Both the position numbers and the translations under genes were made by a program. The notes beneath the pieces were generated by a model. That model was given only the letters and a program-made list of their open reading frames with translations, searched no databases and was not told the DNA's origin. Source: an uncultured archaeon (GTDB lineage: Archaea; Aenigmatarchaeota; Aenigmatarchaeia; Aenigmatarchaeales; Aenigmatarchaeaceae). Taken from it: 64,000 bases of DNA. Position 1 is the first letter of the stretch. Every line of letters begins with the position of its first letter. Location of the stretch: assembly GCA_964347265.1 (NCBI GenBank), contig CAYFXV010000001.1:115876-179875 (forward strand). Reading direction: 5' to 3'. Below, piece by piece: positions 42,348 to 61,011 of the stretch.

Positions 42348-42865
42348 TGAAAATAAAAACATGGATAATTTTAATGATCTCATTGTTTTTTGTTATCTTC
42401 TTATTTATTCTTATCAATATTCAAGAACCTCCAGAACCTAAAGAATTTGTAAAAAATCAGAGCTCTGCCACGTATTCTACTTTATTTTTTACCTATGAAA
42501 TAAAAAGATATCCATCCAACGTTGAAATAAAACTAACAGAACAGACAAACCAAACAGCAGTCTTAGGTTTTGTTACCGAACCTTGGAACATTAATTTTGG
42601 GATAATTCCTGGTAATGAAAGTTTTGTAACAAGAAATATTGAAATAGCTAATTTGGGAGAGAAAAATAACAAAATAATCTTAAAGGTTTATGGAAATATA
42701 TCTCCCTTAGTTACCTTTAGCAAAAACAATTTTATTTTAAAACCTGGAGAAAAGACTTCAATCGATATCTTTTTATATAGCAAAAAATTTGATCCTGGAA
42801 ACTATTCTGGAGAAATTGACGTGATTGCTCGAAAAGATATTTATAATTTTCTATCTATAACATGA
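42347..42865 (+). CDS. N-terminally anchored hypothetical protein
   Basis: 172 aa. TAATG overlap with the upstream gene. N-terminal TM WIILMISLFFVIFLFILI. Confidence 0.5.
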   Translation: MKIKTWIILMISLFFVIFLFILINIQEPPEPKEFVKNQSSATYSTLFFTYEIKRYPSNVEIKLTEQTNQTAVLGFVTEPWNINFGIIPGNESFVTRNIEIANLGEKNNKIILKVYGNISPLVTFSKNNFILKPGEKTSIDIFLYSKKFDPGNYSGEIDVIARKDIYNFLSIT

Positions 42866-42868
42866 TTA

Positions 42869-43615
42869 ATGAAAATATTAATAATCTGTATAATTTGTTT
42901 CTTAATTCTAATAGGAGTTGTTCACTCTTCAATAATAGAAGTTGGCATAATGGAAGAGGTGAAAGGAAAAATTAGTTCAATAAGTTATGATAATTCTACA
43001 AATATTATGAAGTTTTTAATAGAATTCTACAATACTGGTAGTGTTCCATACAAAGCTAGAATTAAGAGTGAGATTTTTAAGGAAGATAAATTGATTTTTA
43101 GTGGTTGGACTCAAGAAAACGAGCTTATGCCTGGAAATAAAAAACTCTCTGATATTTATTGGTTTACTAATTATACTGGAGAATATTTTGTAAAACTAAA
43201 AGCATATTTTGGTAATGAAATCAAGAAATATAAAAAATTTGGAATTTCAATTAATAAATCTATTTTATCTGAAAATGTTTTTGAAATTAAAAATCTTAGA
43301 ACTTATGATAAGTATATTATATTTGATGTTCAAAGCAAAGAAGATGTGGAAAATGTAATAATTATGCCTAATAATTATGTTTCTGGTTGGATATTTGAAC
43401 AAAAGAAAATAGATAACATAACCAAAGATGGTTCAAAACTTGTTTTAATTCCTTATTATTCAACTTTATGGAAACCAACCAATATTACTCTAGCAATAGC
43501 TTCAAATAATGGAAAATATTACACAGAAAAAACTATAGAAATGAAAAAAAGTGAAGGTTTAATTGGATTCTTTTATTATATAATAGATGGTCTAAGAATA
43601 GCTTTCTTTAAGTGA
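42869..43615 (+). CDS. N-terminally anchored/secreted hypothetical protein
   Basis: 248 aa, 3 nt after the upstream stop. N-terminus MKILIICIICFLILIGVVHS. Confidence 0.5.
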   Translation: MKILIICIICFLILIGVVHSSIIEVGIMEEVKGKISSISYDNSTNIMKFLIEFYNTGSVPYKARIKSEIFKEDKLIFSGWTQENELMPGNKKLSDIYWFTNYTGEYFVKLKAYFGNEIKKYKKFGISINKSILSENVFEIKNLRTYDKYIIFDVQSKEDVENVIIMPNNYVSGWIFEQKKIDNITKDGSKLVLIPYYSTLWKPTNITLAIASNNGKYYTEKTIEMKKSEGLIGFFYYIIDGLRIAFFK

Positions 43616-43722
43616 TTAGCCCTTCAATATTGATACTATATTGTATCTATATTTATACAGAAAGATATAAATATGAGATTTATGTGATATCTATATAGCT
43701 GCAATATGAAAAGAGGGATTAT
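43616..43722. promoter_or_regulatory. Intergenic region with several palindromes upstream of the wHTH regulator gene (GATACtatattGTATC 43622–43637; TCTATATTTATA..8 nt..TATAAATATgAG 43636–43667; CTATATAG 43691–43698); candidate operator and promoter
   Basis: Inverted repeats read directly in the sequence. Their position immediately upstream of a DNA-binding regulator gene suggests autoregulation. Confidence 0.35.
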
Positions 43723-43941
43723 TTGGTTGAAAATGGAATAACAAGCAATGATTTGGAGAAAAAAATTCTAGATATGTTAAGCAAGGAATTATTATCTGTT
43801 TCTCAAATTGCTAAAAGACTAGGAATAAGAAGGGATGTTGCAACAGGATATTTAGAAGCATTAAAAAATCAAGGGAAATTAGAATTCCACAAAGTGGGTA
43901 GATCTAATATCTATACAATTCCTAGGAGGACAAAAAAATGA
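43723..43941 (+). CDS. Small winged-helix-turn-helix transcriptional regulator
   Basis: 72 aa. LSVSQIAKRLGIRRDVATGYLEALKNQGKLEF matches a helix–turn–helix plus wing pattern (ArsR/TrmB/MarR-like). It overlaps the downstream surface-protein gene by 4 nt. The start is TTG at 43723 (alternative ATG at 43774). Confidence 0.6.
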   Translation: MVENGITSNDLEKKILDMLSKELLSVSQIAKRLGIRRDVATGYLEALKNQGKLEFHKVGRSNIYTIPRRTKK

Positions 43942-46331
43942 AGAAATTTATATTTTTATCAGTGATTTTATTTTTAATTACAATTCCTTTAGCTTCAGCT
44001 ATGCCTACAATTGAAAATTTTTCTGTCCAACCTCCATCTCTTTGGTTAGGAGAGGGTGCATTTATTTCTCTAAATTGTCTTGATGAAAATTATACAATAG
44101 AACAGGTCTATGCTGATATAATAGGCCCTTCAATTACTCTTCCTACAATGTACTTCACAAAATCTGGTGAAAATTACAGCTTATCTGTTGATAAAGAGTA
44201 CCTTGACAGAACTGGAAATTTTGATGTAACAATATCTTGTGAAAATAATAATAGTGAAATAAGTTATACTTCTACAAATTTCACGATCTCAGAACTTACA
44301 GGTTATATCAATAAAATTAGTCCTAGTCCTGCTTACATTGGAGATACATTAGAAATAGATTTTATAGTCAAAAAAGATGATACAAAATTATCTTCTGGTG
44401 TTGTCTTCAATGTTACATTAAACGATGATCTAAAGAATTTGAAAGTTCTTCCAGCTTATGATATTAACAAAGGTTGGATACTAAAAATAAATTCTCCTAC
44501 CAAATCCAATCTTTATGATTTAGAAGTAACAGCATTTTATGACAGAACAAGTGTAACAGATTATGATACGATTGATGTTAGAAACAAAATTGAATTTGAA
44601 ATCGTTTCTATAGATAGAAATTGGATTAAAACTAATGACAATATAACTGTTAGAGTAAAAGCCTTAGAAAGGGGTAGTGTCATTGAGTTAAATAAAAATA
44701 ATGTTGACATTAACATAGGTTCTACTACTGCTGAAATAACTAGCGTATCTAGAGAAGGTGATTTATTTAATGTAAAAATTATTGCACCAAGTCTTTCTTC
44801 TGGAAGATATAATTTAGAAGCTTATCTCAACTATGAAAGTTCTTCTTATTCAGATAGTGAACCAATAGATTATATTGTAACAGTTGAGGGAGTTTTTGTT
44901 GATGAAAAAAACAAAGCAATGAATGTTAAGATAATTTTTATTCAGGACGATATTACAAAATTAAGCATAACAACAGATGCTTACGGTCACTATTCTGGTT
45001 CGTTGCCTCCTGATATTTATGATGTTAAAATTATTTTCCCGAGATCTGAAGTTATTTTGTATGATGTCTCAGTTAGTAGTTTTGATGATCCTATAAAACA
45101 TTTTTACTCAACTGGTTTTAGTGTTTCTGGAATAAGAAATGCTGGTTTATATAGTTTTGAAATAGATTTATCTTACTTTGATGCTGATATAGAAATGAAA
45201 TATGAGGAAAGGAATGTTATAAGCGAAAATAATTTGAGGGTTTTCAGATGTTCAAGTTGGAGTTCTGGAAGAGGAACATGTAATGGTGAGTGGGAAGAAG
45301 TAGTTGGTGAAATTGATGTTATAAGAAACAAAGTAAAAATAACTTCTTCCACACTTTCAGCTTTTGTTATAGGTGAAATAAAGGCTTTAAGTGCAGATTT
45401 CAGCTTAGATAAAGAAAGATATTATCTTAACGATGATATCACAATAACAGGAATATTAAAAGATGAAGACAGAGGTAGTGTTAGTAATGCTACCATAGAT
45501 GTAAATATTAAAAATACAGGTATAAATTCTAAAACTACTACAGATGAAAATGGTGTATTTTCTGTAGAAATTCCAGCACCTGAAATTGAAGGAGAATATG
45601 GTTTAGTTTTAAAGGCAAAAAAGCATCCTTATAAAGAATTTAGTGCTGAAAAGTATTTTGAAATTATTAAAAGCAGATCAGTCTACATAGATTTTCCAGA
45701 CACGATAAAAATAGCTAGAGGGAATAATCTTACTCAAGAATTTAGTTTAACAAATAATGGACAAGCAGATCTTTCTGATTTAAAAATTTCTTTAGAGGGC
45801 ATACCTGAAAATTATTATAGTATCACTTCAGATAGTACAGATTTGAAAATTGAAGAAAAGAAAACTTTTTATATAGATTTCTTTATTCCTGTTTATGCTG
45901 ATACTGGAATCTCCAGTACTACCTTAAAAATTGAAGATAGTAATGTATCCGAAGAAAAAATTTTCGGATTAAATATATTTGAAAAAATCGAAGAAAATGA
46001 AACTACAGCTGCTCCCACAGGTCTTGTTACAGGTTTTGTTTTCCCAGAAATTAGTTATTTAGAGGTACTCTATATTGTATTGTTTGCAGTAGCTTGTTTT
46101 TCTGTAACAATTATTTTAAAGAAAAGAAAAGTCAGAAAAGGAAGCAGAGGTAATATTAAAAATTTTTTATTTGATATTAAAAACTTTATTGAAAAAGAAG
46201 AACCTCAAACTCAAAAAATTAAAGTTCAGAAAAAATCTAAAAAAAATAATTATGATAAGATAATTGCAACAGAATTTCCTAATTTTCTTAAATTATCTGA
46301 AAATTTGAAAAAAATAAAAGGTGGTGAATAA
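43938..46331 (+). CDS. Type-I membrane-anchored surface protein (797 aa) with CarboxypepD_reg-like beta-sandwich segments
   Basis: Signal MKKFIFLSVILFLITIPLASA. Motifs TDAYGHYSGSLPPDIYDVKIIF and TDENGVFSVEIPAPEIEGEYGLVL. C-terminal TM YIVLFAVACFSVTIIL followed by KKRKVRK. Lysine-rich cytoplasmic tail. Confidence 0.7.
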   Translation: MKKFIFLSVILFLITIPLASAMPTIENFSVQPPSLWLGEGAFISLNCLDENYTIEQVYADIIGPSITLPTMYFTKSGENYSLSVDKEYLDRTGNFDVTISCENNNSEISYTSTNFTISELTGYINKISPSPAYIGDTLEIDFIVKKDDTKLSSGVVFNVTLNDDLKNLKVLPAYDINKGWILKINSPTKSNLYDLEVTAFYDRTSVTDYDTIDVRNKIEFEIVSIDRNWIKTNDNITVRVKALERGSVIELNKNNVDINIGSTTAEITSVSREGDLFNVKIIAPSLSSGRYNLEAYLNYESSSYSDSEPIDYIVTVEGVFVDEKNKAMNVKIIFIQDDITKLSITTDAYGHYSGSLPPDIYDVKIIFPRSEVILYDVSVSSFDDPIKHFYSTGFSVSGIRNAGLYSFEIDLSYFDADIEMKYEERNVISENNLRVFRCSSWSSGRGTCNGEWEEVVGEIDVIRNKVKITSSTLSAFVIGEIKALSADFSLDKERYYLNDDITITGILKDEDRGSVSNATIDVNIKNTGINSKTTTDENGVFSVEIPAPEIEGEYGLVLKAKKHPYKEFSAEKYFEIIKSRSVYIDFPDTIKIARGNNLTQEFSLTNNGQADLSDLKISLEGIPENYYSITSDSTDLKIEEKKTFYIDFFIPVYADTGISSTTLKIEDSNVSEEKIFGLNIFEKIEENETTAAPTGLVTGFVFPEISYLEVLYIVLFAVACFSVTIILKKRKVRKGSRGNIKNFLFDIKNFIEKEEPQTQKIKVQKKSKKNNYDKIIATEFPNFLKLSENLKKIKGGE

Positions 46332-47107
46332 TGGTAAGGATAATTGCTGTATGTTCTGGTAAAGGTGGTGTTGGAAAAACTATTGTGGCTTCCAATTTAG
46401 GAGTAGCCCTTCAGAAATTTTATAAAAAAGCTGCAGTTATTGACTTTAATTTTACAACATCACATTTAAGTCTATATTTTGGTATACATTCTCATCCAAT
46501 AACTTTAAACCACGTCTTAAGAAATGAAGCAAGATTAGAAGATGCTATTTATAATCATCATTCAGGTTTAAAAATTGTTCCTGGATCTTTAAAACTCAGA
46601 GATATTATTGATGTTGATGTTAATAATTTAAGAAATACATTAAAACAAGCATTTTCTAGCTTTGACGTTGTTTTTCTTGATTCTGCACCAGGATTAGGTA
46701 AAGAAGCTTTAATAGCTTTGCAAGCAAGTGATGAGGTTTTATACATTGCAAACCCTCACCTACCTTCTTTAATTGATATAACAAAGTGTAATCAAGTAAT
46801 TAATAAACTGGAAAACAAACCAATTCCAATAGGTATAATTGTTAACAGGGTTAAAAACAAAGGTTATGAAATTAAAAACGATGAAATAAGACAATTTACA
46901 GAACTACCAATTATTGGAGTTATTCCTGAAGATGAAAATATATTATCAGGTTTCAATAGAAGAGATTTGGTAATGCTTTCTAAAAAAAGATCTTCATCTA
47001 AAAAAGAGTTTTTTAAAATTGCTGCAAAACTTGTTGGAATGAAATATGAATACAGTTTTTGGGATAGAATCAAGAGTATTTTCGGAAAAGAAAAAGAATT
47101 TTTTTAA
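46331..47107 (+). CDS. minD: MinD/ParA-family (SIMIBI class) ATPase, paralog 1
   Basis: Deviant Walker A CSGKGGVGKT at residues 8–17. Motifs DFNFTTSHLSLYFG and VVFLDSAPGLG. Its ATG shares a base with the upstream stop (TAATGG). Confidence 0.8.
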   Translation: MVRIIAVCSGKGGVGKTIVASNLGVALQKFYKKAAVIDFNFTTSHLSLYFGIHSHPITLNHVLRNEARLEDAIYNHHSGLKIVPGSLKLRDIIDVDVNNLRNTLKQAFSSFDVVFLDSAPGLGKEALIALQASDEVLYIANPHLPSLIDITKCNQVINKLENKPIPIGIIVNRVKNKGYEIKNDEIRQFTELPIIGVIPEDENILSGFNRRDLVMLSKKRSSSKKEFFKIAAKLVGMKYEYSFWDRIKSIFGKEKEFF

Positions 47108-47131
47108 CAGAATTCATTATCACGATAAATC

Positions 47132-50100
47132 GTGGAATATATGGCTAAATCATTAACAAAAATGAGTTTAACTTTATTTTCTTTATTCTTACTAATAATA
47201 GGTTTATATATAACACAGATAGTTTTAGCTGACCCAGATGAAACAACAATCACATTAACAACTGCTGCTTCAAATACTTATAATGGTGGTGATGCAAACG
47301 GTGGATTGACAGGAGATATTAATTGTGAATATACGATTGATACAATAACTGCACCAACAGGAACTATAGATCAAATAAATTGTTCAGTTTATATAAACTC
47401 TTTTAATAACAAAAAAACTCCAAACAATACTATAAAATGTTTGGAATGTTCAGATGTTTCTTGCACTGGTTATAATCAGATTGGAACAACACAAACCCCT
47501 GCTGAAACGGGATGGATAAATTTTCCAAATGAAGTTCCTTCATATTGTGATACTTCTGGGGAGACATGTTATTTTGCTGTTGAAGTATGTGAATTAGGTC
47601 ATGCACTTGACGATATTGCATTATCTGATGCTTGGGCTGGTTTTAATTTTACCCCACCAGATGACAGCACTCCACCCAATTGGTTTGACAATACTACTTC
47701 TGTTGTTAATGGGTCGCAGTACTCGCCTGGAAAAAATTATCAATTTAATGTAACTTGGAATGATAGTCAAACTGATGTTAATACTGTTTTAATAGAACAT
47801 AATTTTACTGGAGGTGCTGTTCCTCACAATGATAGTGTGAGTAATGAAAGTGATATTTATTATTTTTACCTTAGTGATTTGCCAGCTGGAACTTACGCAT
47901 GGAGAGAACATGCAAATAACACGGATGATTATTGGAATGTTACTAATGATGGAGTTTATTGGGAATATGTTGTAGATCAGAATCAAAGTAATTCTGTTGA
48001 TATGTATATCAATAATGGAACTGTATACAAGAATGAGAATGTTACAATAGATTACAGTACACAGACAAATACTAATGGAACCGCTGTTTACAGTAATAGT
48101 GGAACTGTGAATTTGTATAGAAATGAAAGTCCTGTTAGTAATCCTGACATTGTCACTCTAGGCGCTAGTACATATGTATATAAGGCAAATATAACGGGGA
48201 ACAATAATTACACTGATAATTCAACTGGTGCGACCTATTATTTGTTTGTTAAAAAGGCTGACCCAACAGCAAATTTGAAATTAGCTTTAAATGGAACTGA
48301 GAGTGACTGGACCTATACATATCCTGAGACTGTTAATGCAACTGGTTGGTGTGATTTAACTGATAATCAAGATCTGAGTTTCACTTTGTATAGGAATTAT
48401 GTTTCTACTGGACAGACAGGAGATCCATCAACAGAAGAGATATTACTTGGTAATGCGACTTATGTTTATGAATATAATACAACAGGTGGAAGTAACTATA
48501 GTTCAGGAACTATTACTAGAACAGCTTATGTTAACAAAGGAACAGTTTCACCTAGTTTGTCAATAAATACAACCTGGACAGAGATGTATCCAACAGCAAC
48601 GAGTGTTAGCTGTTCAGTCACTTCTGTGAATAATGAGGTTAATTGTAATTTGTATAGGAATGATACTGGTTCTGTTGTTAGTCCGGATGAAGTATTACTT
48701 GGAGTAGGAGGTTATAATTATTCAACTAACACATCTGAGACAGCTAACTATTCAGCAAATACTACGGGAACATTTAATGTTTTAGGAATTAATCTAGGTA
48801 CTCCGAATGTTAAGACATTTATAGATACTTTACCTTTAAATAAAACTATTAATTATTCTACCAGCGTAACCATAGAAGGAAATTCTACTACCACAACAAC
48901 TCCACCAACTTTTGATTTATTTGTATTTAATGTAACACCATCTTCACCAGCTGTTAGTTTGTCGAACACTTCGAATAATCCTGCGACCTTAATATTAACA
49001 CTGGGAAATGGAACTTATCAAATAATTTACAATACCTCTGGGAATGCTAACTGGTCTTCTACTCAGAATAACACCTTATATTTAATGGTTAATAAAGGTA
49101 GTGCTAATTTGGTTTTAAGCTCTAATGTGACATGGAGTACGATTTACCCGAATGCTAGCAATGTTACTGGTTCTGGATGTCCAACAAATGGCGCATCAGA
49201 TTTTACATGTAATTTATATAGAAATACTTCAGTTACGAATCCTGTCGGTTCTGGTGAACCCATGACAAATGAAACTATTTTACTTGGAGCAGGTAGTCAT
49301 GAATATGTATGGAATATGAGTATTAGTAATCCTGCTAACTGGACTTTTAATACAACTAATGATATTTTAGTTATATCTCCAAATAGTTCTACTCAAAATT
49401 ATATGAATCTAACTTTAGGAACTGGAGCAACTGGAACAGAAGATAATAAAACATATAGTTATCCTACAACTACTAATGCAACTGGATGGTTTGACGCTAA
49501 TGCATTCGTAGGTTCTGCTCCTACATTTAATTTATACAGAAATGATACACCAATCGTAGATGGTAATCCTGTTAGCAATGTTATAGAACTTGGGGCTGAT
49601 TATTATCAATATGTTTATAACACATCTGGTAATACTAACTATTCATCGGCATCAAAAACATTTTTCTTGAACATAACTAAGGCTGACCCAACAGCAAATT
49701 TGAAATTAGCTTTAAATGGAACTGAGAGTGACTGGACCTATACATATCCTGAGACTGTTAATGCAACTGGTTGGTGTGATTTAACTGATAATCAAGATCT
49801 GAGTTTCACTTTGTATAGGAATTATGTTTCTACTGGACAGACAGGAGATCCATCAACAGAAGAGATATTACTTGGTAATGCGACTTATGTTTATGAATAT
49901 AATACAACAGGTGGAAGTAACTATAGTTCAGGAACTATTACTAGAACAGCTTATGTTAACAAAGGAACAGTTTCACCTAGTTTGTCAATAAATACAACCT
50001 GGACAGAGATGTATCCAACAGCAACGAGTGTTAGCTGTTCAGTCACTTCTGTGAATAATGAGGTTAATTGTAATTTGTATAGGAATGATACTGGTTCTGT

Positions 50101-52405
50101 TGTTAGTCCGGATGAAGTATTATTAGGTGCTGGATATTATAACTATACTACAAATACATCACAAACTGCTAATTATTCTGCTAATACTACGGGAGAGGGT
50201 CAAATATTAACCATACAAGCAAATACATCATCTAGTATTGATTTGTTCTTGAATAATTCACAAGCTAATTTTGATATGGATGCTCATACCGCCTTGAATA
50301 CAACAGCAGTTCTTGTTATTCCTCCTTCTAGTAATATAGAAATATGGACAAATTATTCTGATGGAGGATGGAATCTTTGGGATTCATGTTCAGATTGTCC
50401 TTCACTGGAGAATGTAACTGTCTTAACACAATCTGGTATTTGGAATTTCACTGCTAATCTTACAAATGCTAATTATACTTCTGCTTATGAGAGTTGGTAT
50501 GCTAATATGACAGGAGATACAACTTCACCACAATGGAGTCAACAAGGATCCAACGCCACATTAATTGGAGTTGGAGAACCAATCAAACTCTATGCAAATT
50601 GGTCTGATAATATTGATTTAGACTATGCTTGGCTTTCTACAAATGAAAGTGGTGAATGGAAAAATAAATCTGGGGTTTATAATTCGCCTATAGATATAAA
50701 CCTAAGTGTAGGTGAAACATGGTCAAACTTCACTTGGCAAAATACTTCTACTCCAGCAGGAACAGCTGTTAGTTGGAGAATCTATGCTAATGATTCTAAT
50801 AGCAATGAGAATGTTACAAACATTCAAACTTTCACCTTAAATGTTACTGAACTTTGGAATTTTTCAACTAATGGTTCAATATTTTCATCTGCAGCAATAG
50901 CAGATATAAATGATGATACATTCATAGATGTGATAATAGGTTCTGATGATTTCAATGTTTATGCACTGAATGGTACTAATGGTAGTAAATTATGGAATTA
51001 TTCAACTGAAGGTGCAGTTGCATCATCTCCTTCTTTGGCTAATGTTACTGGCGGTGATGATTTAGAAGTTATAGTTGGGTCCTTTGATGATAGTGTTTAT
51101 GTATTAAATGGAACTAATGGGAGTAAGATATGGAACGTTTCGCTTGGAGGGGATGTTTGGTCATCTGCGGCAATTGAAGACATAGATAATGATAATTATT
51201 TAGATATAGTTATAGGCTCTGATAATTGGACTGTCTATGCTTTTAATGGAACAGGAGATTTAATCTGGAGTTTTTCAGCTGAAGATTCTATATGGTCTTC
51301 TCCAGTAATCGCAAATATAACTCAAGATGAGTTTATAGAAGTAATTTTTACATCTTATGATTATAATGTCTATGCCCTTAATGGGAGCAATGGAAGTAAA
51401 TTATGGAACTATTCAGTTTTGGATATGATTGAATCGTCTCCAGCAGTTGGTGATATTAATAATGATAATTTATTAGAAGTTGTTTTTGGGTCTTATGATA
51501 ACAGAACATATGCTATTAATGGAACCAATGGAGAAGAGCTTTGGAATTTCTCAACTAACGAATGGATAATATCTTCTCCTGTAATAGCTAATATCACAGG
51601 AGGTAATTCATTAAAAATTGTTGTTGGGTCTGATGATGGTACTGTTTATGCTCTGAATGGAGATGGTACATCTTTTTGGAATTTTACTGTACCTACTGGA
51701 GGAAGAATTGAATCTTCACCAGCTATTGCTGATATGAATGATGATGGAATTAATGATGTTATTGTAGCTTCTACTGATAATAGAGTATATGCTTTAAATG
51801 GCTCTACTGGCACACAAATATGGAGCTATAATACACGTGGCTATCTCTTTTCATCTCCATCTGTTGAAGACATAAATGGTGATGGACGTTTAGACATTGT
51901 AATTGGTTCATTTAATGAAAAGATTTATTCTCTTGATCCTCCAAGTGGTTGGAATATGTTTGGTGGTAATCAAAAACGCACAAGAGTTGTGGATAGGTCT
52001 CCACCAATTAACTTAAAATATGGAGTATATCTAATCAATGGTTCTGCAATAATTTATTCCTATTGGAGAGATTTGTATAGTAACTTGGCTTTTGGAATAA
52101 TAGAAGAAAACTCAAATGGAATGTTTACTGATCACAATATTAATATTTTTGGAACAACTAGTTGGATTAATTATACTATTGACAATTGTTTAAGTTCTCC
52201 TGAAAAAAACATGCGTAATTGTATAAAACAATGTACAGAAACGTGGAAAACATGTGAAGAAACAAAAGATGAATGTCATGAAGAGATGAAACACTGTAAA
52301 AACAATTGTAGAAATTCTGAAAAAATAGTCGAATATAAAATTCATGCTTTTGACACATTCAACAATGAAGGTATCGTAGAAGATGTGTTTATATGTGGTG
52401 GATGA
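47132..52405 (+). CDS. Large (1757 aa) N-terminally anchored surface protein: sequon-rich repeats, an 8-bladed PQQ-like/FG-GAP-like beta-propeller region (~50850–51990) and a Cys-rich C-terminal tail
   Basis: N-terminus MAKSLTKMSLTLFSLFLLIIGLYITQIVLA. Eight repeats of SSPAIADI.DD...DVIVGS.D..VYALNGTNGSKLWN. C-terminus CLSSPEKNMRNCIKQCTETWKTCEETKDECHEEMKHCKNNC. Confidence 0.8.
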   Translation: MEYMAKSLTKMSLTLFSLFLLIIGLYITQIVLADPDETTITLTTAASNTYNGGDANGGLTGDINCEYTIDTITAPTGTIDQINCSVYINSFNNKKTPNNTIKCLECSDVSCTGYNQIGTTQTPAETGWINFPNEVPSYCDTSGETCYFAVEVCELGHALDDIALSDAWAGFNFTPPDDSTPPNWFDNTTSVVNGSQYSPGKNYQFNVTWNDSQTDVNTVLIEHNFTGGAVPHNDSVSNESDIYYFYLSDLPAGTYAWREHANNTDDYWNVTNDGVYWEYVVDQNQSNSVDMYINNGTVYKNENVTIDYSTQTNTNGTAVYSNSGTVNLYRNESPVSNPDIVTLGASTYVYKANITGNNNYTDNSTGATYYLFVKKADPTANLKLALNGTESDWTYTYPETVNATGWCDLTDNQDLSFTLYRNYVSTGQTGDPSTEEILLGNATYVYEYNTTGGSNYSSGTITRTAYVNKGTVSPSLSINTTWTEMYPTATSVSCSVTSVNNEVNCNLYRNDTGSVVSPDEVLLGVGGYNYSTNTSETANYSANTTGTFNVLGINLGTPNVKTFIDTLPLNKTINYSTSVTIEGNSTTTTTPPTFDLFVFNVTPSSPAVSLSNTSNNPATLILTLGNGTYQIIYNTSGNANWSSTQNNTLYLMVNKGSANLVLSSNVTWSTIYPNASNVTGSGCPTNGASDFTCNLYRNTSVTNPVGSGEPMTNETILLGAGSHEYVWNMSISNPANWTFNTTNDILVISPNSSTQNYMNLTLGTGATGTEDNKTYSYPTTTNATGWFDANAFVGSAPTFNLYRNDTPIVDGNPVSNVIELGADYYQYVYNTSGNTNYSSASKTFFLNITKADPTANLKLALNGTESDWTYTYPETVNATGWCDLTDNQDLSFTLYRNYVSTGQTGDPSTEEILLGNATYVYEYNTTGGSNYSSGTITRTAYVNKGTVSPSLSINTTWTEMYPTATSVSCSVTSVNNEVNCNLYRNDTGSVVSPDEVLLGAGYYNYTTNTSQTANYSANTTGEGQILTIQANTSSSIDLFLNNSQANFDMDAHTALNTTAVLVIPPSSNIEIWTNYSDGGWNLWDSCSDCPSLENVTVLTQSGIWNFTANLTNANYTSAYESWYANMTGDTTSPQWSQQGSNATLIGVGEPIKLYANWSDNIDLDYAWLSTNESGEWKNKSGVYNSPIDINLSVGETWSNFTWQNTSTPAGTAVSWRIYANDSNSNENVTNIQTFTLNVTELWNFSTNGSIFSSAAIADINDDTFIDVIIGSDDFNVYALNGTNGSKLWNYSTEGAVASSPSLANVTGGDDLEVIVGSFDDSVYVLNGTNGSKIWNVSLGGDVWSSAAIEDIDNDNYLDIVIGSDNWTVYAFNGTGDLIWSFSAEDSIWSSPVIANITQDEFIEVIFTSYDYNVYALNGSNGSKLWNYSVLDMIESSPAVGDINNDNLLEVVFGSYDNRTYAINGTNGEELWNFSTNEWIISSPVIANITGGNSLKIVVGSDDGTVYALNGDGTSFWNFTVPTGGRIESSPAIADMNDDGINDVIVASTDNRVYALNGSTGTQIWSYNTRGYLFSSPSVEDINGDGRLDIVIGSFNEKIYSLDPPSGWNMFGGNQKRTRVVDRSPPINLKYGVYLINGSAIIYSYWRDLYSNLAFGIIEENSNGMFTDHNINIFGTTSWINYTIDNCLSSPEKNMRNCIKQCTETWKTCEETKDECHEEMKHCKNNCRNSEKIVEYKIHAFDTFNNEGIVEDVFICGG
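48254..48699 (+). repeat. Exact ~446-bp intragenic repeat, copy 1 (copy 2 at 49679–50124, offset 1425 bp)
   Basis: ADPTANLKLALNGTESDWTYTYPETVNATGWCDLTDNQDLSFTLYRNY...NCNLYRNDTGSVVSPDEVLLG is identical at both sites. ggctgaccc appears at 48256 and 49681. Confidence 0.8.
49679..50124 (+). repeat. Exact ~446-bp intragenic repeat, copy 2
   Basis: See copy 1. Confidence 0.8.
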
Positions 52406-52937
52406 GATGAATAAAAATAAATTAATGTTATTGTTCGTATTGTCAGTATGCTTTATTGTTTTAATGTTTTTTGTAATGCCCGCATCATCTAATGTAATAC
52501 ATTTAACACCTATTGAAGCAAAAGATTCTGATGGCAATCCATCATCTGATATAATCCAAAGAATAATTTTAGAAAATGATTTTGAAGATGTTATTTTAAA
52601 GGTAAGACCGTTTGGCTACATTACAGTAAAAGAATGGGATAATGGAATGTCTGACATATCAAAGATAGAAAAAGCTATCATAAATGTTAAGTGGAAAACT
52701 GATGTGAATAAAGGAGCTGGTAATATCTACATAGGATATTCAACAGATGAAGGTAAATCTTTTGTGGAAAAAGGGCCTTTCAATGAAAGTGAGATTATAC
52801 AAAATAGCGTGATTGAACTCCCAAAACCTTTTACATATGATTTAAAGAAAGTTCAGGTTAGATGGAGAGGAGAAGATCTTGATTACAGATTAGCTGCTAG
52901 GGGATATGTTAATTTCACAATGGATGTTTATGTTTGA
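52383..52937 (+). CDS. Small secreted/anchored protein with one copy of the GKGAGNIY(I/V)GY...VR.RGEDLD domain shared with the next gene
   Basis: 184 aa. Hydrophobic N-terminus LMLLFVLSVCFIVLMFFVMPASS. KGAGNIYIGYSTDEG...VRWRGEDLDYRLAARGYVNF parallels the duplicated domain of the downstream gene. Confidence 0.55.
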   Translation: MCLYVVDEMNKNKLMLLFVLSVCFIVLMFFVMPASSNVIHLTPIEAKDSDGNPSSDIIQRIILENDFEDVILKVRPFGYITVKEWDNGMSDISKIEKAIINVKWKTDVNKGAGNIYIGYSTDEGKSFVEKGPFNESEIIQNSVIELPKPFTYDLKKVQVRWRGEDLDYRLAARGYVNFTMDVYV

Positions 52938-52947
52938 GGATGAAAAT

Positions 52948-55056
52948 ATGATGACTGTTAATAAAATAAAAAATAATTTTGTGTATTCATTCTTATTGAT
53001 TTTATTAATTTGGTTTTTATTTTTTGTTATTTTTGTAATTGCAACACAGCCTAGCATAAACAGAGTACCGACTGCATGTGTAGATTCAGATGGTGATTGT
53101 GATGTTGAGAACATTAATCTAAGTGATAATATCTATGAGAGTGTTAACTTGAAGACATCTCCCTTTGGTTGGATTAATGCAACTGATTGGGATCAAGATG
53201 TGCCTGCTGGAAATACAATAGATAATGCGACATTGTATGTTGAATGGTACACTGATACTGGTAAAGGTGCTGGTAATATCTATGTAGGATATTATAACAG
53301 TACTGATTGGGTTAATTGTACAAGTCCTTTGAGTGAAAGTGGAGGTGAAGTAGATACAACATGTGATGTTTCTAGTCTGTCTCTTTCACAGTTGAATAAT
53401 ATAAAAGTTAGATTTAGGGGTGAGGATTTAGATCAACGTAACCCTGCTTATGCTTATGTTGATTATATTTACATTGAGGTTAATTATTCTGCTCCACCTT
53501 TGTGGGCAAATCAAACAACAAATGACACAAATAATGTTATACTTTCCAAAAAAGCCATAAATTTATCAGCACAAGGATATGATGATGTAGGTTTAGACTA
53601 TGCTTGGCTTTCTACAAATGAAAGTGGTGAATGGAAAAATTATACTGATGGAACTTATGGATCACCAATGTATTTGAATGGTGTATCGGAAACTTGGACT
53701 TGGAGTAATTTCACTTGGAAGAATGATTCATTTTCTTATGGACTGGTTGGATGGAAAATTTATTACAACGATACATGGGGAAAAGAAAATGTTACAGATA
53801 ATTCTACATTTTTTGTTCAATTAGGAAGAATACCGACTGGATGTGTAGATTCAGATGGTGATTGTGATGTTGAGAACATTAATCTAAGTGATAATATCTA
53901 TGAGAGTGTTAACTTGAAGACATCTCCCTTTGGTTGGATTAATGCAACTGATTGGGATCAAGATGTGCCTGCTGGAAATACAATAGATAATGCGACATTG
54001 TATGTTGAATGGTACACTGATACTGGTAAAGGTGCTGGTAATATCTATGTAGGATATTATAACAGTACTGATTGGGTTAATTGTACAAGTCCTTTGAGTG
54101 AAAGTGGAGGTGAAGTAGATACAACATGTGATGTTTCTAGTCTGTCTCTTTCACAGTTGAATAATATAAAAGTTAGATTTAGGGGTGAGGATTTAGATCA
54201 ACGTAACCCTGCTTATGCTTATGTTGATTATATTTACATTGAGGTTAATTATTCTATGGCTGGCATGGGTTATTTAGAAGTTAATCTTTCATTGCCACCT
54301 GATCCATACAATGTTATTCAAAATAATACTTTTACTATTAATGCAACTGTTTATTGTAGAAGTGGGAATTGTCAAAATGTTAATGGAACTGCTAGATATA
54401 ATCTCTCATCTGCAACGCCAGACACTCCGATGAATGTTACACCAGGAGAAGAACCATTTTACGTGAATGAAACTCCTGCTCTAGCAATGAAGTCTTGCCC
54501 AACAAACCCATTAAATGTTGATGATTTTTGCAATTTAACTTGGACCATTAATGCAACAGGTAATATTAACACTTATTGGGAAATCGATGTCTTATTTAAT
54601 TCATCTGATGGTGGTATTACAGACAATCATACAGATGATACAACAATATCAATACTTGATTGCACTGTGGATATTACTGCACAATGGTCTTCTATAAAAT
54701 TTGGTTTATTGTATCCGAGTACAGGACCACATGCAGCTCCTGACAATTCAAATGATAAATATAACATAACTGTTAATCCGGGAAGTTGTAATCTAGATCT
54801 TTACATAAATGGAACAGATTTAACAAACATAACTTACAATTCTCAAATCGGTGTTGATAATGTAACATGGAGTAACACAAGTGAAGTAGCTGGTGAATTT
54901 AATCTATCATCCACAGTTGATGTTATTAAGTTAGATGTTCCTCAAAATACAAATGTTACAACTTGGTATTGGATAAATGTTCCAGCTGTTTATGCCGGCT
55001 ACTATAATGGAACAATTTATATATATGGTGTTGAAAATGGTGAAAATCCTCCTTAA
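52948..55056 (+). CDS. Secreted/anchored protein (~703 aa) with two near-identical ~141-aa domains and a sequon-rich C-terminal region
   Basis: Likely start is the ATG at 52948 (MMTVNKIKNNFVYSFLLILLIWFLFFVIFVIA), just after the upstream stop at 52937; the ORF track extends to 52906. PT(A/G)CVDSDGDCDVENINLSD...VRFRGEDLDQRNPAYAYVDYIYIEVNYS occurs twice. Confidence 0.7.
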   Translation: MMTVNKIKNNFVYSFLLILLIWFLFFVIFVIATQPSINRVPTACVDSDGDCDVENINLSDNIYESVNLKTSPFGWINATDWDQDVPAGNTIDNATLYVEWYTDTGKGAGNIYVGYYNSTDWVNCTSPLSESGGEVDTTCDVSSLSLSQLNNIKVRFRGEDLDQRNPAYAYVDYIYIEVNYSAPPLWANQTTNDTNNVILSKKAINLSAQGYDDVGLDYAWLSTNESGEWKNYTDGTYGSPMYLNGVSETWTWSNFTWKNDSFSYGLVGWKIYYNDTWGKENVTDNSTFFVQLGRIPTGCVDSDGDCDVENINLSDNIYESVNLKTSPFGWINATDWDQDVPAGNTIDNATLYVEWYTDTGKGAGNIYVGYYNSTDWVNCTSPLSESGGEVDTTCDVSSLSLSQLNNIKVRFRGEDLDQRNPAYAYVDYIYIEVNYSMAGMGYLEVNLSLPPDPYNVIQNNTFTINATVYCRSGNCQNVNGTARYNLSSATPDTPMNVTPGEEPFYVNETPALAMKSCPTNPLNVDDFCNLTWTINATGNINTYWEIDVLFNSSDGGITDNHTDDTTISILDCTVDITAQWSSIKFGLLYPSTGPHAAPDNSNDKYNITVNPGSCNLDLYINGTDLTNITYNSQIGVDNVTWSNTSEVAGEFNLSSTVDVIKLDVPQNTNVTTWYWINVPAVYAGYYNGTIYIYGVENGENPP
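53068..54255 (+). repeat. Near-perfect 423-bp intragenic duplication (53068–53490 = 53833–54255, 765-bp offset; a single gca/gga difference noted)
   Basis: Direct base comparison. Confidence 0.8.
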
Positions 55057-55690
55057 AATATTGATTATTATTTTATTTTCCATTTTGCTATCGTCAGAAG
55101 TACATGCAATAAATCTTGGAAGCGTTGCAAAAAATAAATTTGCCGAGATATCAAATGATGAATCAGTAAAATTCAAAATGCTTTTTTGGAACGTTGAAAA
55201 CGAATCTTATACTATGAAATTATCAGTAAAAGAGGCTCCAAAAGATTGGGTAATAATAATTGATCCTAACGAGTTTATTTTAAATAAGTCAATTGGTGAA
55301 GAATATATTAAATTACCACATATAAAAGAAAACATAAAAGCAAAAGTTGTTAATCTTTTTGTTAAAGCTGATAGCAATAGCAAACCTGGTAAATATTTTG
55401 TTATGATTGAAGCAGAAATTAAAATATTTAAAAATGAAACGACCGATATAACAATCGTTCCTAGAAAATTATTCAAATTTGAAATTGAATTAATGGATTT
55501 TGATACTAACTTGAATAATGTAATTAAAAATAAGGAAACCATGATAGAATTTTCTGGTAATAGTTTTGATCATAATGATGAAATTCTAATAAGTAATGGA
55601 AAAAATGGAAAGCAAATAGATAGAAAATATTTTTATTCTATTGTTATATTTCTAATTGTCCTAATTTCAATAATAATATATAAAAAATGA
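55037..55690 (+). CDS. Type-I membrane protein (signal peptide + C-terminal TM), hypothetical
   Basis: The ATG at 55037 gives MVKILLKILIIILFSILLSSEVHA and overlaps the upstream stop. The ORF-track start 54977 lies inside the upstream gene. C-terminal TM SIVIFLIVLISIIIY followed by KK. Confidence 0.6.
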   Translation: MVKILLKILIIILFSILLSSEVHAINLGSVAKNKFAEISNDESVKFKMLFWNVENESYTMKLSVKEAPKDWVIIIDPNEFILNKSIGEEYIKLPHIKENIKAKVVNLFVKADSNSKPGKYFVMIEAEIKIFKNETTDITIVPRKLFKFEIELMDFDTNLNNVIKNKETMIEFSGNSFDHNDEILISNGKNGKQIDRKYFYSIVIFLIVLISIIIYKK

Positions 55691-56970
55691 TAACTATGTT
55701 CAAAATTAGTATAACAAATAAAATCTTTTTAATTAGTATTTTTTCGATAATAGTTGCATTTTTAATGTTTTATTATAATCTGAGTGGAATTACTGGTTTT
55801 GTTGGGGCTGATGTAGCCATAAAATCAAAAACAGATGGAAATATATTTTTAAATTATAATTATAGTGTTAATTTAACATCAATTCAAAATATAACAGTAG
55901 AATTTATTAATACGGGAAGTACAAATTACACTGCAAGAATAGAAATAGCACTATATTTTTATAACAATACTACTGGTAACTTAGATGAATTAGCAACTTA
56001 TTATGACGCTTCTGTTTTTCTATTTCCTGGAGAAAGAAAAAATTTTAAAATATCTTTTCTGCCAAACAGAGTAGGGATTTATTATATTAAAGCAAGAGTT
56101 ATCTATGGTGCTAAAGTAGGAGAGCAATGGGGTAGTTTTTTTGTCTATTATCGATATACACAAATACCAGAAATAATTCATGTAGCAACATATCCTGGAG
56201 GTGGGACAATACCTAGGAAAGGAGAAGGAGGAATCACTAATTTAGATTTGGAATATAGAGATAAGGTCGAATTGTATCCTGGACAAGAGATTTTGTTAAG
56301 TGTAACTGTAAATAACACTGGGACAATTAATTTACACAACATGAAATTTTATTCTTCGACAACAGAATATATAGACTTTGAAGTGAATCCAAAAGAAATT
56401 TATGAATTGGGACTCGGTGAGCATAGCATATTCTTAATTTCTTTAAAACTATCAGAAGATATCCCACCAGGAGAGTATGACTTCTTTTTTGAAGTATTGT
56501 GTCTAGAAATAAAAAGGACAGGAAATATAAAATTAAACATAACGCCTTTTGCTAAACCTCCATTAAAAGATGAAATTTATGATACAATATTAAATTATGA
56601 ATATCTTATCACAGAACTAGACTATGAAATATATCTAACATCTTCAAAAGGATTTAATACTTCAAGAGCTGAAAGGTATTTAGATAATGCCAAAAGAAAT
56701 TTACAAAGAGCGAGAGAGCGTTTTGATGAAGAAGATTATGAAGATGCGAGAGATGTTTTAGATAGAGTTAAAAGAGATTTAGAAAACGTTGTTTTTGAAC
56801 TAGCTGCTATTTCATTTAGAGTTTATGTTTATCCAGCCTACAGTCCTTTTTTAATATCGATATTATTATTAATGGTTTTAATTAGTATAATAATCGCTAT
56901 TTATTTGTATAAGAAAAGAAAGAAGAAAAAACCAAAGTTAATAAAAGAATTTACTGAAGAGGAGACATAA
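55687..56970 (+). CDS. Membrane-anchored hypothetical surface protein (N- and C-terminal TM; charged helical juxtamembrane region)
   Basis: 427 aa. ATGA overlap with the upstream gene. N-terminus ISITNKIFLISIFSIIVAFLMF. C-terminal TM SPFLISILLLMVLISIIIAIYLY followed by KKRKKKK. Confidence 0.6.
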   Translation: MITMFKISITNKIFLISIFSIIVAFLMFYYNLSGITGFVGADVAIKSKTDGNIFLNYNYSVNLTSIQNITVEFINTGSTNYTARIEIALYFYNNTTGNLDELATYYDASVFLFPGERKNFKISFLPNRVGIYYIKARVIYGAKVGEQWGSFFVYYRYTQIPEIIHVATYPGGGTIPRKGEGGITNLDLEYRDKVELYPGQEILLSVTVNNTGTINLHNMKFYSSTTEYIDFEVNPKEIYELGLGEHSIFLISLKLSEDIPPGEYDFFFEVLCLEIKRTGNIKLNITPFAKPPLKDEIYDTILNYEYLITELDYEIYLTSSKGFNTSRAERYLDNAKRNLQRARERFDEEDYEDARDVLDRVKRDLENVVFELAAISFRVYVYPAYSPFLISILLLMVLISIIIAIYLYKKRKKKKPKLIKEFTEEET

Positions 56971-57000
56971 GTTTAAAAATATTATAAATGGGATATAATT

Positions 57001-57288
57001 ATGGGATTATTTGGTCCTTATATATACACAAACAAAAAAGGTAAGAAATTTTGGCTTCACATGAGAAAAAAAGGGAAATCTACTATATACTTTTTTTCAA
57101 AAGATCCTAGAGGAGCTATTAATAGCTTGCCAAGAGGTTTTACAGTTGTGGAAAACCCAAAAACAGGACTACCCTTCGTAAAAAGAAAAACAGGTGGACT
57201 ATTGGGTGGTCTATTTAAAAAGGTTACTGAGAAAAAATTAACAGAAGAAAAGACTACAGAAACATCACAAAAAACTGAAGGTGAATAA
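57001..57288 (+). CDS. Small basic hypothetical protein (95 aa) immediately preceding MinD paralog 2
   Basis: K/R-rich with no TM. Its stop abuts the MinD start (TAAATGG). Confidence 0.45.
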   Translation: MGLFGPYIYTNKKGKKFWLHMRKKGKSTIYFFSKDPRGAINSLPRGFTVVENPKTGLPFVKRKTGGLLGGLFKKVTEKKLTEEKTTETSQKTEGE

Positions 57289-58053
57289 ATGGTAAGAATA
57301 ATAGGAATTGTATCAGGAAAGGGCGGTGTTGGAAAAACTACTGTAGGTCTAAACCTTGGAGCAGCTTTAGCTCATCACTTTAAAAAGAATGTTACTATTG
57401 TTGACTGTAATGTTACAACATCACATTTAGGACTTTATTTAGGAATGTATTACTGTCCTATTACATTAAATAAGGTTTTAAGAGGAGAATATACTGTTGA
57501 AGAAGCTGTTCAACAACACCACACAGGATTAAAAGTAATACCAGCCTCTCTATCTTTAACAGATTTAGAAGGAATAGATATAACAGAAATAAGAAACAGT
57601 TTAAAATCAATCTTTGATAAAAATGATATCATATTATTAGATGCAAGTCCTGGTTTAGGAAGGGAAGCAGTAGCAACATTAAGAGCAAGCGATGAGGTAT
57701 TGTACATTACAAATCCTTATATTCCTTTTGCGATGGATATTGTAAGAAATCAAGAAATTGTTAATGAGATTGGAGTAAAACCTATAGGAATTGCTCTTAA
57801 CATGGTTCATGACAAAAAATATGAAATGAATAAAAAAGAAATAGAAGAATTAACAAGATTACCTGTTATAGCTAAAATACCTTTTGACAGAAATATTCAT
57901 AAGAGTCTTGCTTTAAAAACTCCAGTCGTAACTTATAAGCCTTATACTGCTGCAAGTAAAGAAATCATAAATCTTGCTTCTAATTTAATTGGAGAAACTT
58001 ATAATTTTGAGGGTGCACTACAAAGATTTTTAAGAAAATTAAGATTAAGATAA
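57289..58053 (+). CDS. minD: MinD/ParA-family ATPase, paralog 2
   Basis: MVRIIGIVSGKGGVGKTTVGLNLG has the deviant Walker A. DCNVTTSHLGLYLG and ILLDASPGLG. Colinear with paralog 1 at roughly 35–40% identity by eye. Confidence 0.8.
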   Translation: MVRIIGIVSGKGGVGKTTVGLNLGAALAHHFKKNVTIVDCNVTTSHLGLYLGMYYCPITLNKVLRGEYTVEEAVQQHHTGLKVIPASLSLTDLEGIDITEIRNSLKSIFDKNDIILLDASPGLGREAVATLRASDEVLYITNPYIPFAMDIVRNQEIVNEIGVKPIGIALNMVHDKKYEMNKKEIEELTRLPVIAKIPFDRNIHKSLALKTPVVTYKPYTAASKEIINLASNLIGETYNFEGALQRFLRKLRLR

Positions 58054-58084
58054 GCTTAAATTTTTTCATTTAAACAATATTCTC

Positions 58085-58573
58085 ATGTATAAAAAAGTTT
58101 TTTGGTTCTTGCTTGTATGGACAGTGTTCTCTTTAATATTACAAATGTTTGGTTATGAAATTTTAGATTCCATTATAATTGTTCTCATAATTGATTTAAT
58201 AGCACTAGGAGTAATTGTAGAAATTGGTAGGAAAAAACCATTAAAAGAAATTAATGAAAAAATTGCATCAAAAATTGAAAACATAGAAAATGTTTGCCAA
58301 AGCATACTTAAAAGTTCTGATGAAAATCCAATAATGGAAAAAATAGAAGGAAGAATAAATAAACAAAAAGAAGATGTAAATTATCTTTTAGATAAAATGT
58401 CTAGAAAAGCTCTAGAATTAGAAGAGAAAATAAATAAGTTCGGATTAAATTTAGCTGAACATGTAGAAGATTTTACTGATAGGCTAGAAAAACTTGAAAA
58501 TCCTGAAGAAACAGAAGAAACAGAAAGTTTTCCTATTGGAGAAACCGTATACATAGAAGAAGAAAAAACTTAA
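58085..58573 (+). CDS. N-terminally membrane-anchored coiled-coil hypothetical protein
   Basis: 162 aa. Two hydrophobic segments, then an E/K-rich helical region. Confidence 0.45.
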   Translation: MYKKVFWFLLVWTVFSLILQMFGYEILDSIIIVLIIDLIALGVIVEIGRKKPLKEINEKIASKIENIENVCQSILKSSDENPIMEKIEGRINKQKEDVNYLLDKMSRKALELEEKINKFGLNLAEHVEDFTDRLEKLENPEETEETESFPIGETVYIEEEKT

Positions 58574-60571: not shown

Positions 60572-60572
60572 C

Positions 60573-61007: not shown

Positions 61008-61011
61008 TAAA

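Follow-up and report, generated by a model that had tools for sequence, protein, structure and literature searches.

Two MinD-family ATPase genes embedded in a conserved cluster of surface-protein genes in Aenigmatarchaeota

FlhG, TadZ, and BcsQ are MinD/ParA ATPases that place or count envelope machines encoded in the same operon, and Haloferax volcanii has four MinD paralogues in its genome. In Haloferax, MinD4 positions the archaella and the chemosensory arrays, for which its membrane-targeting sequence is required (10.1101/2020.04.03.021790), and the divisome is placed by an unrelated Dip/Arco GTPase system (PMC13228585; 10.64898/2026.07.23.738820). The H. volcanii MinD2 has a conserved small operon partner, HVO_0596, the role of which is not known (PMC11588486). 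Here we analyzed two MinD-type genes, termed MinD1 and MinD2, on a stretch of 64,000 nucleotides (the window; positions count from its first nucleotide) of contig CAYFXV010000001.1 from an uncultured archaeon of the Aenigmatarchaeota. Both genes belong to an array of 14 genes on one strand (41409..58573, plus strand). The reading that we favor, and to which we give about half of our confidence, is that MinD1 and MinD2 would be membrane-binding, dimerizing cytoplasmic ATPases of a conserved two-module cluster that encodes a surface-protein assembly of Aenigmatarchaeota.

MinD1 (46331..47107, plus strand, 258 amino acids (aa)) and MinD2 (57289..58053, plus strand, 254 aa) carry the Walker A sequences CSGKGGVGKT and VSGKGGVGKT, respectively, and are found at the positions and with the colinearity that an earlier note, made from the letters of this DNA alone, had given. 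Their alignment runs from end to end, with 112 of 242 positions identical (46%, E 1e-79). Both passed the archaeal MinD model TIGR01969 (minD_arch, NCBIfam), MinD1 with 210.2 and MinD2 with 212.2 bits at a cut-off of 201.75. Given in the same order, they failed the bacterial MinD model TIGR01968 (118.5 and 83.5 bits, cut-off 212.9), the ParA_partition model NF041546 (55.2 and 46.8 bits, cut-off 180), the Get3/ArsA/TRC40 model TIGR00345 (20.7 and 16.1 bits, cut-off 135), the BcsQ model TIGR03371 (59.3 and 52.6 bits, cut-off 157.85), and the CpaE/Ssd model CpaE_hom_Actino (35 and 26 bits, cut-off 154). The Pfam family CBP_BcsQ (PF06564) was weakly passed (27.6 and 30.2 bits versus 21.3). The closest structures in the PDB were archaeal MinDs, led by Archaeoglobus 1HYQ (E 1e-44 for MinD1 and 5e-42 for MinD2, residues 1–236) and followed by Pyrococcus 1G3Q and 1ION, then by bacterial MinD (3Q9L, 4V02) and FleN/FlhG (FleN 5J1J, E about 1e-15). 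In a rough neighbor-joining tree, which has no support values and a hand-entered E. coli outgroup sequence, the orthologues of MinD1 and MinD2 formed two separate clades within the big archaeal MinD radiation that includes 1HYQ. The earlier note had spoken of MinD/ParA-type ATPases and had held a role in plasmid partition to be unlikely; the model scores and the structures place both proteins in the archaeal MinD family and not with partition ParA. As the two clades are separate in this rough tree, MinD1 and MinD2 are old paralogues, and an origin by recent local duplication was rejected. Taken by themselves, the two MinD genes are unremarkable representatives of a known family.

The deviant Walker A motif with the signature lysine, SGKGGVGKT, is intact in both proteins and kept in their orthologues. 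A Walker A scan found no further P-loop in the window, so that the 'ATPase complex', which had been suggested as a possible object of spatial organization, found no candidate. At switch I, the first Asp of the archaeal MinD D-x-D motif is retained and the second is replaced by Asn, giving D38-F-N40 in MinD1 (Asn codon 46448–46450) and D39-C-N41 in MinD2 (Asn codon 57409–57411). The sequence D-[CS]-N was found in 118 of the 120 closest homologues, and among the 150 best cluster representatives, drawn from 1.8 billion proteins, the second position was Asn in 104 and Asp in 12. D-x-D is kept in the solved archaeal MinDs and in the module-A 'a' MinD paralogue. In E. coli MinD, D40 of the D38/D40 pair is the catalytic Asp according to mutant work. 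The Asn at this position predicts slow intrinsic hydrolysis, a long-lived ATP-bound and membrane-bound state, and a need for a partner for release.

Both proteins end in an amphipathic helix, encoded at about 47048–47104 in MinD1 and at 58012–58050 in MinD2 (GALQRFLRKLRLR). The helix is basic and terminates all orthologues of MinD1 and MinD2 (FWDRIKSIFGK is another example), and AlphaFold2 (AF2) modeled the C-terminal segment as helical. The hydrophobic moment of the helix was 0.44–0.89 across orthologues, mostly 0.6–0.9, and usually the top value within the protein; the same measure gave 0.38–0.40 for hand-entered reference sequences of the MinDs of E. coli and B. subtilis. The helix is thus a putative membrane-targeting sequence that resembles that of Haloferax MinD4.

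The comparison with described systems shows both likeness and difference. MinD1 and MinD2 share with Haloferax MinD4 and MinD2 the archaeal MinD family and the deviant Walker A, and with MinD4 also the C-terminal helix, but they have no long C-terminal extension as in MinD4 and carry the switch-I Asn in place of the second Asp. In contrast to the Haloferax genes, they belong to a DPANN archaeon, number two or three paralogues in each cluster, lie within and overlap with their presumed cargo genes, and have as a partner a new 95-aa beta protein that is encoded upstream. The targets of Haloferax MinD4 and MinD2 are envelope machines (archaellum, chemosensory arrays) rather than the divisome; here the role would be one in surface assembly. 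With bacterial MinD of the MinCDE system (3Q9L, 4V02 as matches), the two proteins agree in fold, in the signature-lysine Walker A, and in the C-terminal amphipathic helix, which confers ATP-dependent membrane binding in bacterial MinD, whereas TIGR01968 failed, MinC and MinE were not found in the open reading frames (ORFs) scanned, and the equivalent of D40 is Asn. FlhG/FleN, TadZ/CpaE, and BcsQ offer a parallel in gene arrangement, that is, a MinD-like ATPase gene inside a surface-structure operon together with membrane or landmark binding, but they represent other subfamilies (TIGR03371 and CpaE_hom_Actino failed) with unrelated cargo, and domain scans of ORFs of the window detected no flagellar, Tad, or cellulose synthase genes. 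ParABS and SegAB have in common with our locus the P-loop class and the coupling of the ATPase gene to a small basic one; they differ in that the ParA models failed, centromere repeats are missing in the window, and MinD1 and MinD2 have a predicted membrane helix in place of a surface that binds DNA.

The evidence for a role at the cell surface comes from gene order. We fetched 80 genome loci via an alignment of B_95, which is the 95-aa protein encoded upstream of MinD2, and compared each protein of the window with all ORFs of these loci; a second, independent metagenome scan, seeded with the small protein A_72, also retrieved 80 loci (individual loci are cited below by their L numbers). A cluster of two modules was repeated in about 70 related loci with differing flanks. 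Module A comprises, in this order, three secreted or anchored immunoglobulin-like (Ig-like) proteins (A_312, A_172, and A_248 in the window), a winged-helix protein (A_72), a type-I membrane protein of about 800 aa (A_797), and MinD1, and module B comprises two surface proteins (B_716 and B_237), a type-I membrane protein of about 420 aa (B_427), B_95, and MinD2. The supercluster A_312, A_172, A_248, A_72, A_797, MinD1, B_716, B_237, B_427, B_95, MinD2, sometimes with B_162, was present in L004, L017, L022, L027, L030, L036, and L037, and the A_72-seeded scan recovered the full order from A_312 to MinD2 on 11 contigs. The flanks vary, with ribosomal L1/L10/L12 genes in the window and in L004, CDC48 in L001 and L006, and a KaiC-like gene in L005. 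The locus of a distant B_95 member (58% identical) encodes, in this order, a giant beta-propeller protein, proteins of 170, 691, 196, and 412 aa, a small protein of 83 aa, and a MinD, so that the entire part of the array from B_1757 to MinD2 is conserved there.

Among the 29 non-redundant Aenigmatarchaeota loci with full-length B_95, B_427 was directly upstream of B_95 in 27, and an orthologue of MinD2 followed B_95 at a distance of at most 120 nucleotides (nt) in 20 and of at most 3 kb in 27. Across Aenigmatarchaeota genomes, the order B_427, B_95, MinD2 was kept at 27–90% identity. Two metagenome-assembled genomes (MAGs) each have two such triads on different scaffolds (L016 and L019; L023 and L029), for which a genuine module B duplication or a mixture of strains in the bins would account.

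With respect to module A, 29 metagenome loci from the A_72-seeded scan were assessable, and a MinD gene abutted the A_797 homologue in 28 of them. MinD was directly downstream of the A_797 homologue in 20 loci, with junctions of −26 to +4 nt. Nine loci, one of which has both arrangements, have a type II arrangement, in which MinD lies between A_72 and A_797, its start overlaps the A_72 stop by 4–8 nt, and the MinD paralogue keeps D-x-D. The divergent contig L090 has three MinDs, two of them flanking an A_797 homologue and one overlapping the stop of a B_427 homologue, and no B_95; another MinD, which is 48% identical, precedes a protein of >2051 aa that is related to B_1757. The number and position of the MinD genes thus track the membrane-protein genes, which counts against a merely inherited housekeeping synteny.

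The earlier note had suggested that the two ATPases organize envelope machinery, with the giant adhesin as a possible partner. The synteny in about 70 loci bears out the link to envelope proteins, but the giant adhesin drops out as a conserved partner, as B_1757 and B_184 are absent in many relatives, for example in L004. As judged from conservation of gene order, the partners that recur are two type-I membrane proteins of middle size, A_797 and B_427, together with B_95 and not the giant adhesins.

In A_797 (43938..46331, plus strand), a signal peptide precedes Ig-like domains (CarboxypepD_reg, NEW3-like), a transmembrane segment spans about residues 700–727, and the cytosolic tail of 70 aa (residues 728–797, nt 46119–46328) contains the conserved motifs KKRK..IKNFLFD(I/V)K and YDKLIxTEFPN. 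In B_427 (55687..56970, plus strand), a hydrophobic segment at the N-terminus is followed by two Ig-like domains (CARDB/NEW3-like) and a helical stalk, and the transmembrane segment leads to a cytosolic tail of 20 aa, YKKRKKKKPKLIKEFTEEET (nt 56908–56967). The tail motif, [KR]n-RPKLLR-acidic, was found in 27 of the 29 loci, and homologues of B_427 turned up in Aenigmatarchaeota only. The cytosolic tails of A_312 and B_237 have just 2–6 residues; conserved tails are found on A_797 and B_427, which directly precede cytoplasmic genes.

B_95 (57001..57288, plus strand) is a cytoplasmic protein of 95 aa with an isoelectric point (pI) of 10.2, in line with its earlier description as basic. A conserved MGLFGP motif at its N-terminus is followed by a beta domain and by GGxLGGLF, and the protein ends in a charged tail without order; AF2 predicted a confident five-strand beta domain at residues 8–62 and a disordered tail thereafter. 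No relative was detected in Pfam, PHROG, or the PDB, neither as a fold nor as a family match. The core of B_95 also occurs standalone in basic proteins of 55–66 aa from Bacteroidota (Flavobacteriaceae, Chitinophagales), Micrarchaeota, and Aenigmatarchaeota (L038–L086), and in the fetched loci these genes had no detected MinD gene and no conserved neighbors. The MinD-linked B_95 proteins add the near-invariant N-terminal MGLFGP and the GGxLGGLF to this core. Homologues with 60–94% identity carry the name Candidatus Aenigmatarchaeota or Aenigmarchaeota in their source records. A strict co-occurrence of the RPKLLR tail with B_95 was also considered and is weakened by L138 and L140, which have related tails without B_95, and by L171, in which B_95 is found with a divergent tail. 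L090 and L149 have neither the RPKLLR tail nor B_95.

Overlaps or gaps of a few bases are found at most junctions of the 14-gene array. The ATG of MinD1 (46331–46333) overlaps the TAA stop of the A_797 gene (46329–46331) by one base in the sequence TAATG, and the ATG of MinD2 (57289–57291) directly abuts the stop of the B_95 gene (57286–57288). At both MinD starts, a Shine-Dalgarno-like GGTGA lies within the upstream ORF (46323–46327 and 57280–57284), and because this sequence sits inside their 3' ends, A_797 and B_95 both end with G-E. Equally tight junctions exist elsewhere in the array (42347/42347, 43938/43941, and 55687/55690). The translational coupling that the earlier note had emphasized is therefore real in the sense of overlap and abutment, but tight junctions throughout the array indicate that it is not peculiar to the MinD genes. 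In relatives, the junction between the A_797 homologue and MinD1 is conserved within the range given above, and the junction between B_95 and MinD2 is 0–1 nt in close relatives only and 10–82 nt in others.

On the basis of the synteny, MinD1 and MinD2 are most likely cargo-dedicated positioning or assembly ATPases for the surface complex rather than ATPases of cell division or DNA partition. The C-terminal helix would keep ATP-bound MinD dimers at the cytoplasmic side of the membrane, where they could bind A_797 and B_427 by the short cytosolic tails of these proteins. In module B, B_95 may mediate this engagement as an adaptor or may regulate it. As a result, the surface complex would be clustered, positioned, or licensed for assembly at a defined site. 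FlhG, TadZ, BcsQ, and Haloferax MinD4 follow such a logic with other envelope machines, and ParC/PpfA, too, is counted among the cargo-dedicated positioning ATPases.

Several observations weigh against this proposal. Everything beyond family membership is read from gene order. A related MinD in L088 (47% identical) has purely cytoplasmic neighbors, and the triad of B_427, B_95, and MinD2 is broken by local rearrangements in L031, L034, L035, and L055. In L138 and L140, degenerate PKLR/PRLR-like tails persist without B_95 or an adjacent MinD, so that B_95 is no more than one candidate reader of the tail. When AF2 was applied to a fusion of the B_95 and MinD2 letters, using a block-diagonal alignment and with pLDDT (the per-residue model confidence) as the only output, the values of the B_95 domain fell from >90 to 55–67, and the model gave no sign of a complex. 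PDB profile searches with A_312, B_237, and B_427 gave no significant match that could identify the assembly. Finally, MinD2 is the slowest-evolving gene of the cluster (58–94% identity versus 27–77% for its neighbors), as would also be expected of a housekeeping protein with many partners.

This slow evolution, seen also in a further comparison of MinD2 homologues (63–94% identity), is the starting point for another explanation, in which MinD2, and perhaps MinD1, serves a housekeeping Min-like system for the control of the division site or cell shape, and the adjacency to surface genes was merely inherited within the phylum. The position of MinD2 just upstream of L1/L10/L12 in the window and in L004 and the annotation of the whole family as 'cell division ATPase MinD' would fit as well. 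We nevertheless regard this explanation as unlikely, as the order of the cluster stays constant while the flanks change, and the copy number and position of MinD follow the membrane-protein genes (L090, L012–14, type II loci). Moreover, the scanned ORFs contained neither a MinC nor a MinE domain, and MinDs are not responsible for divisome placement in the sole archaeon tested (10.1101/2020.04.03.021790; PMC13228585). A_72 brings a regulatory function into play, which could replace positioning or be exerted besides it and may thus coexist with our favored model: as in a FleN/FlhG-like pair, a MinD paralogue could bind A_72 and control the transcription of the operon, and hence number or timing. 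A_72 is a conserved winged-helix-turn-helix (wHTH) protein within module A, the start of the D-x-D MinD in type II loci overlaps the A_72 stop by 4–8 nt, the solved relatives include FleN antiactivators (5J1J, E about 1e-15), and a wHTH gene is also found near the remote MinD of L088. In the window, however, the 2.4-kb A_797 gene separates A_72 from MinD1, MinD2 has no HTH neighbor, and no operator-like repeats were seen, and the conserved membrane helix and the membrane-protein tails indicate an action at the membrane, so that we hold such a pair to be quite improbable.

The two small basic proteins, B_95 (pI 10.2) and A_72 (pI 10.1), could also be viewed as DNA-binding adaptors of a ParA/SegA-type DNA segregation system, in which a small gene coupled directly to a ParA/MinD-type ATPase gene is the classic layout. 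This is highly unlikely in view of the failed ParA_partition model and the passed MinD model, and the C-terminal helix would be a membrane-targeting element instead of a nucleoid-binding surface. Moreover, B_95 has no detectable DNA-binding fold, and the standalone B_95-like proteins as a rule have no ParA neighbor. The earlier note had already stated that a ParB gene and centromere-like repeats are lacking nearby, and we agree on both, as the scanned ORFs yielded no ParB domain and all repeats of the window lie within surface-protein genes, with no repeat arrays outside these coding repeats. The least probable explanation, to which we give hardly any weight, is a Get3/ArsA-like targeting function, in which the MinDs would chaperone or insert their C-terminally anchored neighbors. 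Get3 belongs to the same SIMIBI P-loop class, and four neighbors indeed have a C-terminal transmembrane anchor, but these neighbors combine the anchor with an N-terminal signal peptide and a large extracellular part and are thus Sec-type type-I proteins and not tail-anchored, the TIGR00345 scores of 20.7 and 16.1 bits are far from the cut-off of 135, and a length of 254–258 aa leaves no space for the client-binding helical subdomain of Get3. The suggestion in the earlier note that the ATPases may assist the insertion of partner proteins is unsupported on the same grounds.

As to the other genes of module A, A_312 (41409..42347, plus strand) is the first and has a signal peptide, Ig-like domains, a C-terminal transmembrane anchor, and a tail of 2–6 aa; its orthologues hold the same position in related loci. 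A_172 (42347..42865, plus strand) follows with an N-terminal hydrophobic segment and one Ig-like domain, and A_248 (42869..43615, plus strand), the position of which is conserved, has an N-terminal hydrophobic segment and a domain akin to the N-terminal domain of B_427 (blastp E 1.7e-5). This domain of B_427 also resembles the second domain of A_312 (hhalign 94.6%, E 7e-8), so that the modules share building blocks. A_72 (43723..43941, plus strand, 72 aa, TTG start, pI 10.1), which the earlier note had overlooked, lies between A_248 and A_797, and its stop overlaps the start of A_797 by 4 nt; its assignment as a wHTH protein is based on sub-threshold matches to many HTH families, and it is 50–88% conserved among relatives. 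Except for A_72, B_95, and the MinDs, every protein of the modules has an N-terminal hydrophobic signal or anchor, and A_312, A_797, B_237, and B_427 additionally have a C-terminal transmembrane segment. The only recognizable domains in the module proteins are Ig-like (CarboxypepD_reg, CARDB, NEW3).

Between MinD1 and module B, the window contains a variable insert, found by domain scan to encode the giant secreted beta-propeller/FG-GAP protein B_1757 (47132..52405, plus strand), which is present in L001, L008, L023–26, and L031 and absent in L004, L017, L022, L027, L036, L037, and most metagenome loci. The small secreted protein B_184 (52383..52937, plus strand) is a single copy of the B_716 repeat and co-varies with B_1757. 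B_716 (52906..55056, plus strand), a secreted or anchored surface protein, is the first gene product of module B, and its C-terminal part is conserved in relatives of 430–1100 aa. Internal repeats of at least 300 nt were found in B_1757 (48254–48553 and 49679–49978, 100% identical) and in B_716 (53062–53361 and 53827–54126, 99% identical), which points to very recent intragenic duplication or possibly to assembly collapse or expansion. The second gene of module B, B_237 (54977..55690, plus strand), encodes a signal peptide and a C-terminal transmembrane anchor, and its true start is likely Met21 (nt 55037), as M21 is invariant. Behind MinD2, B_162 (58085..58573, plus strand) encodes a small membrane protein that is hydrophobic in N-terminal segments and has a coiled coil, and its orthologues follow MinD2 in the sub-lineage of the window (L004, L007–10, L027, L036, L037, L097–102, L114, and L131).

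Some side aspects concern the wider neighborhood. About half of the window is taken up by an ORF of 10,140 aa (83–30505, plus strand), which presumably encodes a giant surface protein. It is followed by U_160 (33050–33532), an M50B-like membrane protein, and U_1964 (33569–39463), a protein of 1964 aa with MG2/NEW3 domains and a C-terminal transmembrane segment, and both are syntenic with the cluster in many loci (L012–L014 and L093–L133); in L012–14, a U_160 homologue is located between B_95 and MinD2. Two tandem genes on the minus strand encode secreted proteins of 294 and 295 aa (39474–40358 and 40434–41321) that are 93% identical and have no Pfam domain, and most related loci have their homologues immediately ahead of module A, on the strand opposite to it, which extends the conserved neighborhood. 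A pair consisting of a wHTH gene (86–93 aa) and a PqqD-like gene (87–91 aa) recurs near MinD loci of different lineages, in L088 at 4595–5147 and in L138, L140, and L149 between the M_295 and A_312 homologues. In L001, which comes from a hot-spring Aenigmatarchaeota MAG, a CDC48-type AAA ATPase of 1814 aa with two intein insertions (splicing and LAGLIDADG) is encoded downstream of the MinD2 orthologue (9446–14890). Downstream of the array in the window, genes for a Nudix protein, a GNAT acetyltransferase, and a ferredoxin-thioredoxin fusion (59284–61677) lie inside the L1-L10-L12 ribosomal cluster, whereas the three ribosomal genes are contiguous in L004. The window has 30–35% G+C and archaeal L1/L10/L12 genes, which, together with the ORF of 10,140 aa and the names carried by the homologues, assigns it to a DPANN archaeon of the phylum Aenigmatarchaeota. 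Rfam and tRNA scans of the window were empty.

The value of the locus lies in the conserved context and not in the MinD genes as such. In the literature searched, the phylum-wide two-module cluster with embedded MinDs, the 95-aa family, and the conserved tail motif appear to be undescribed. The large archaeal MinD subclade with a natural Asp-to-Asn exchange at the catalytic site bears on the turnover of the switch. The known cargos of archaeal MinDs are limited to the motility machinery of Haloferax, and the cell biology of DPANN archaea is almost entirely unexplored. The cluster offers concrete candidate partners for MinD, namely two membrane-protein tails and one small protein, and these are tied to surface proteins through which these tiny archaea probably contact other cells. 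More tentatively, and with considerable doubt on our side, the system of two or three paralogues, a naturally hydrolysis-impaired switch, B_95 as a new adaptor or regulator, and an RPKLLR tail code on type-I membrane proteins might be a dedicated MinD system that places a surface organelle of several proteins, possibly a host-attachment site, at one defined position on the very small cells of these presumed episymbionts. If true, this would be the first MinD/ParA cargo system in which an extracellular assembly is addressed via the tails of single-pass membrane proteins.

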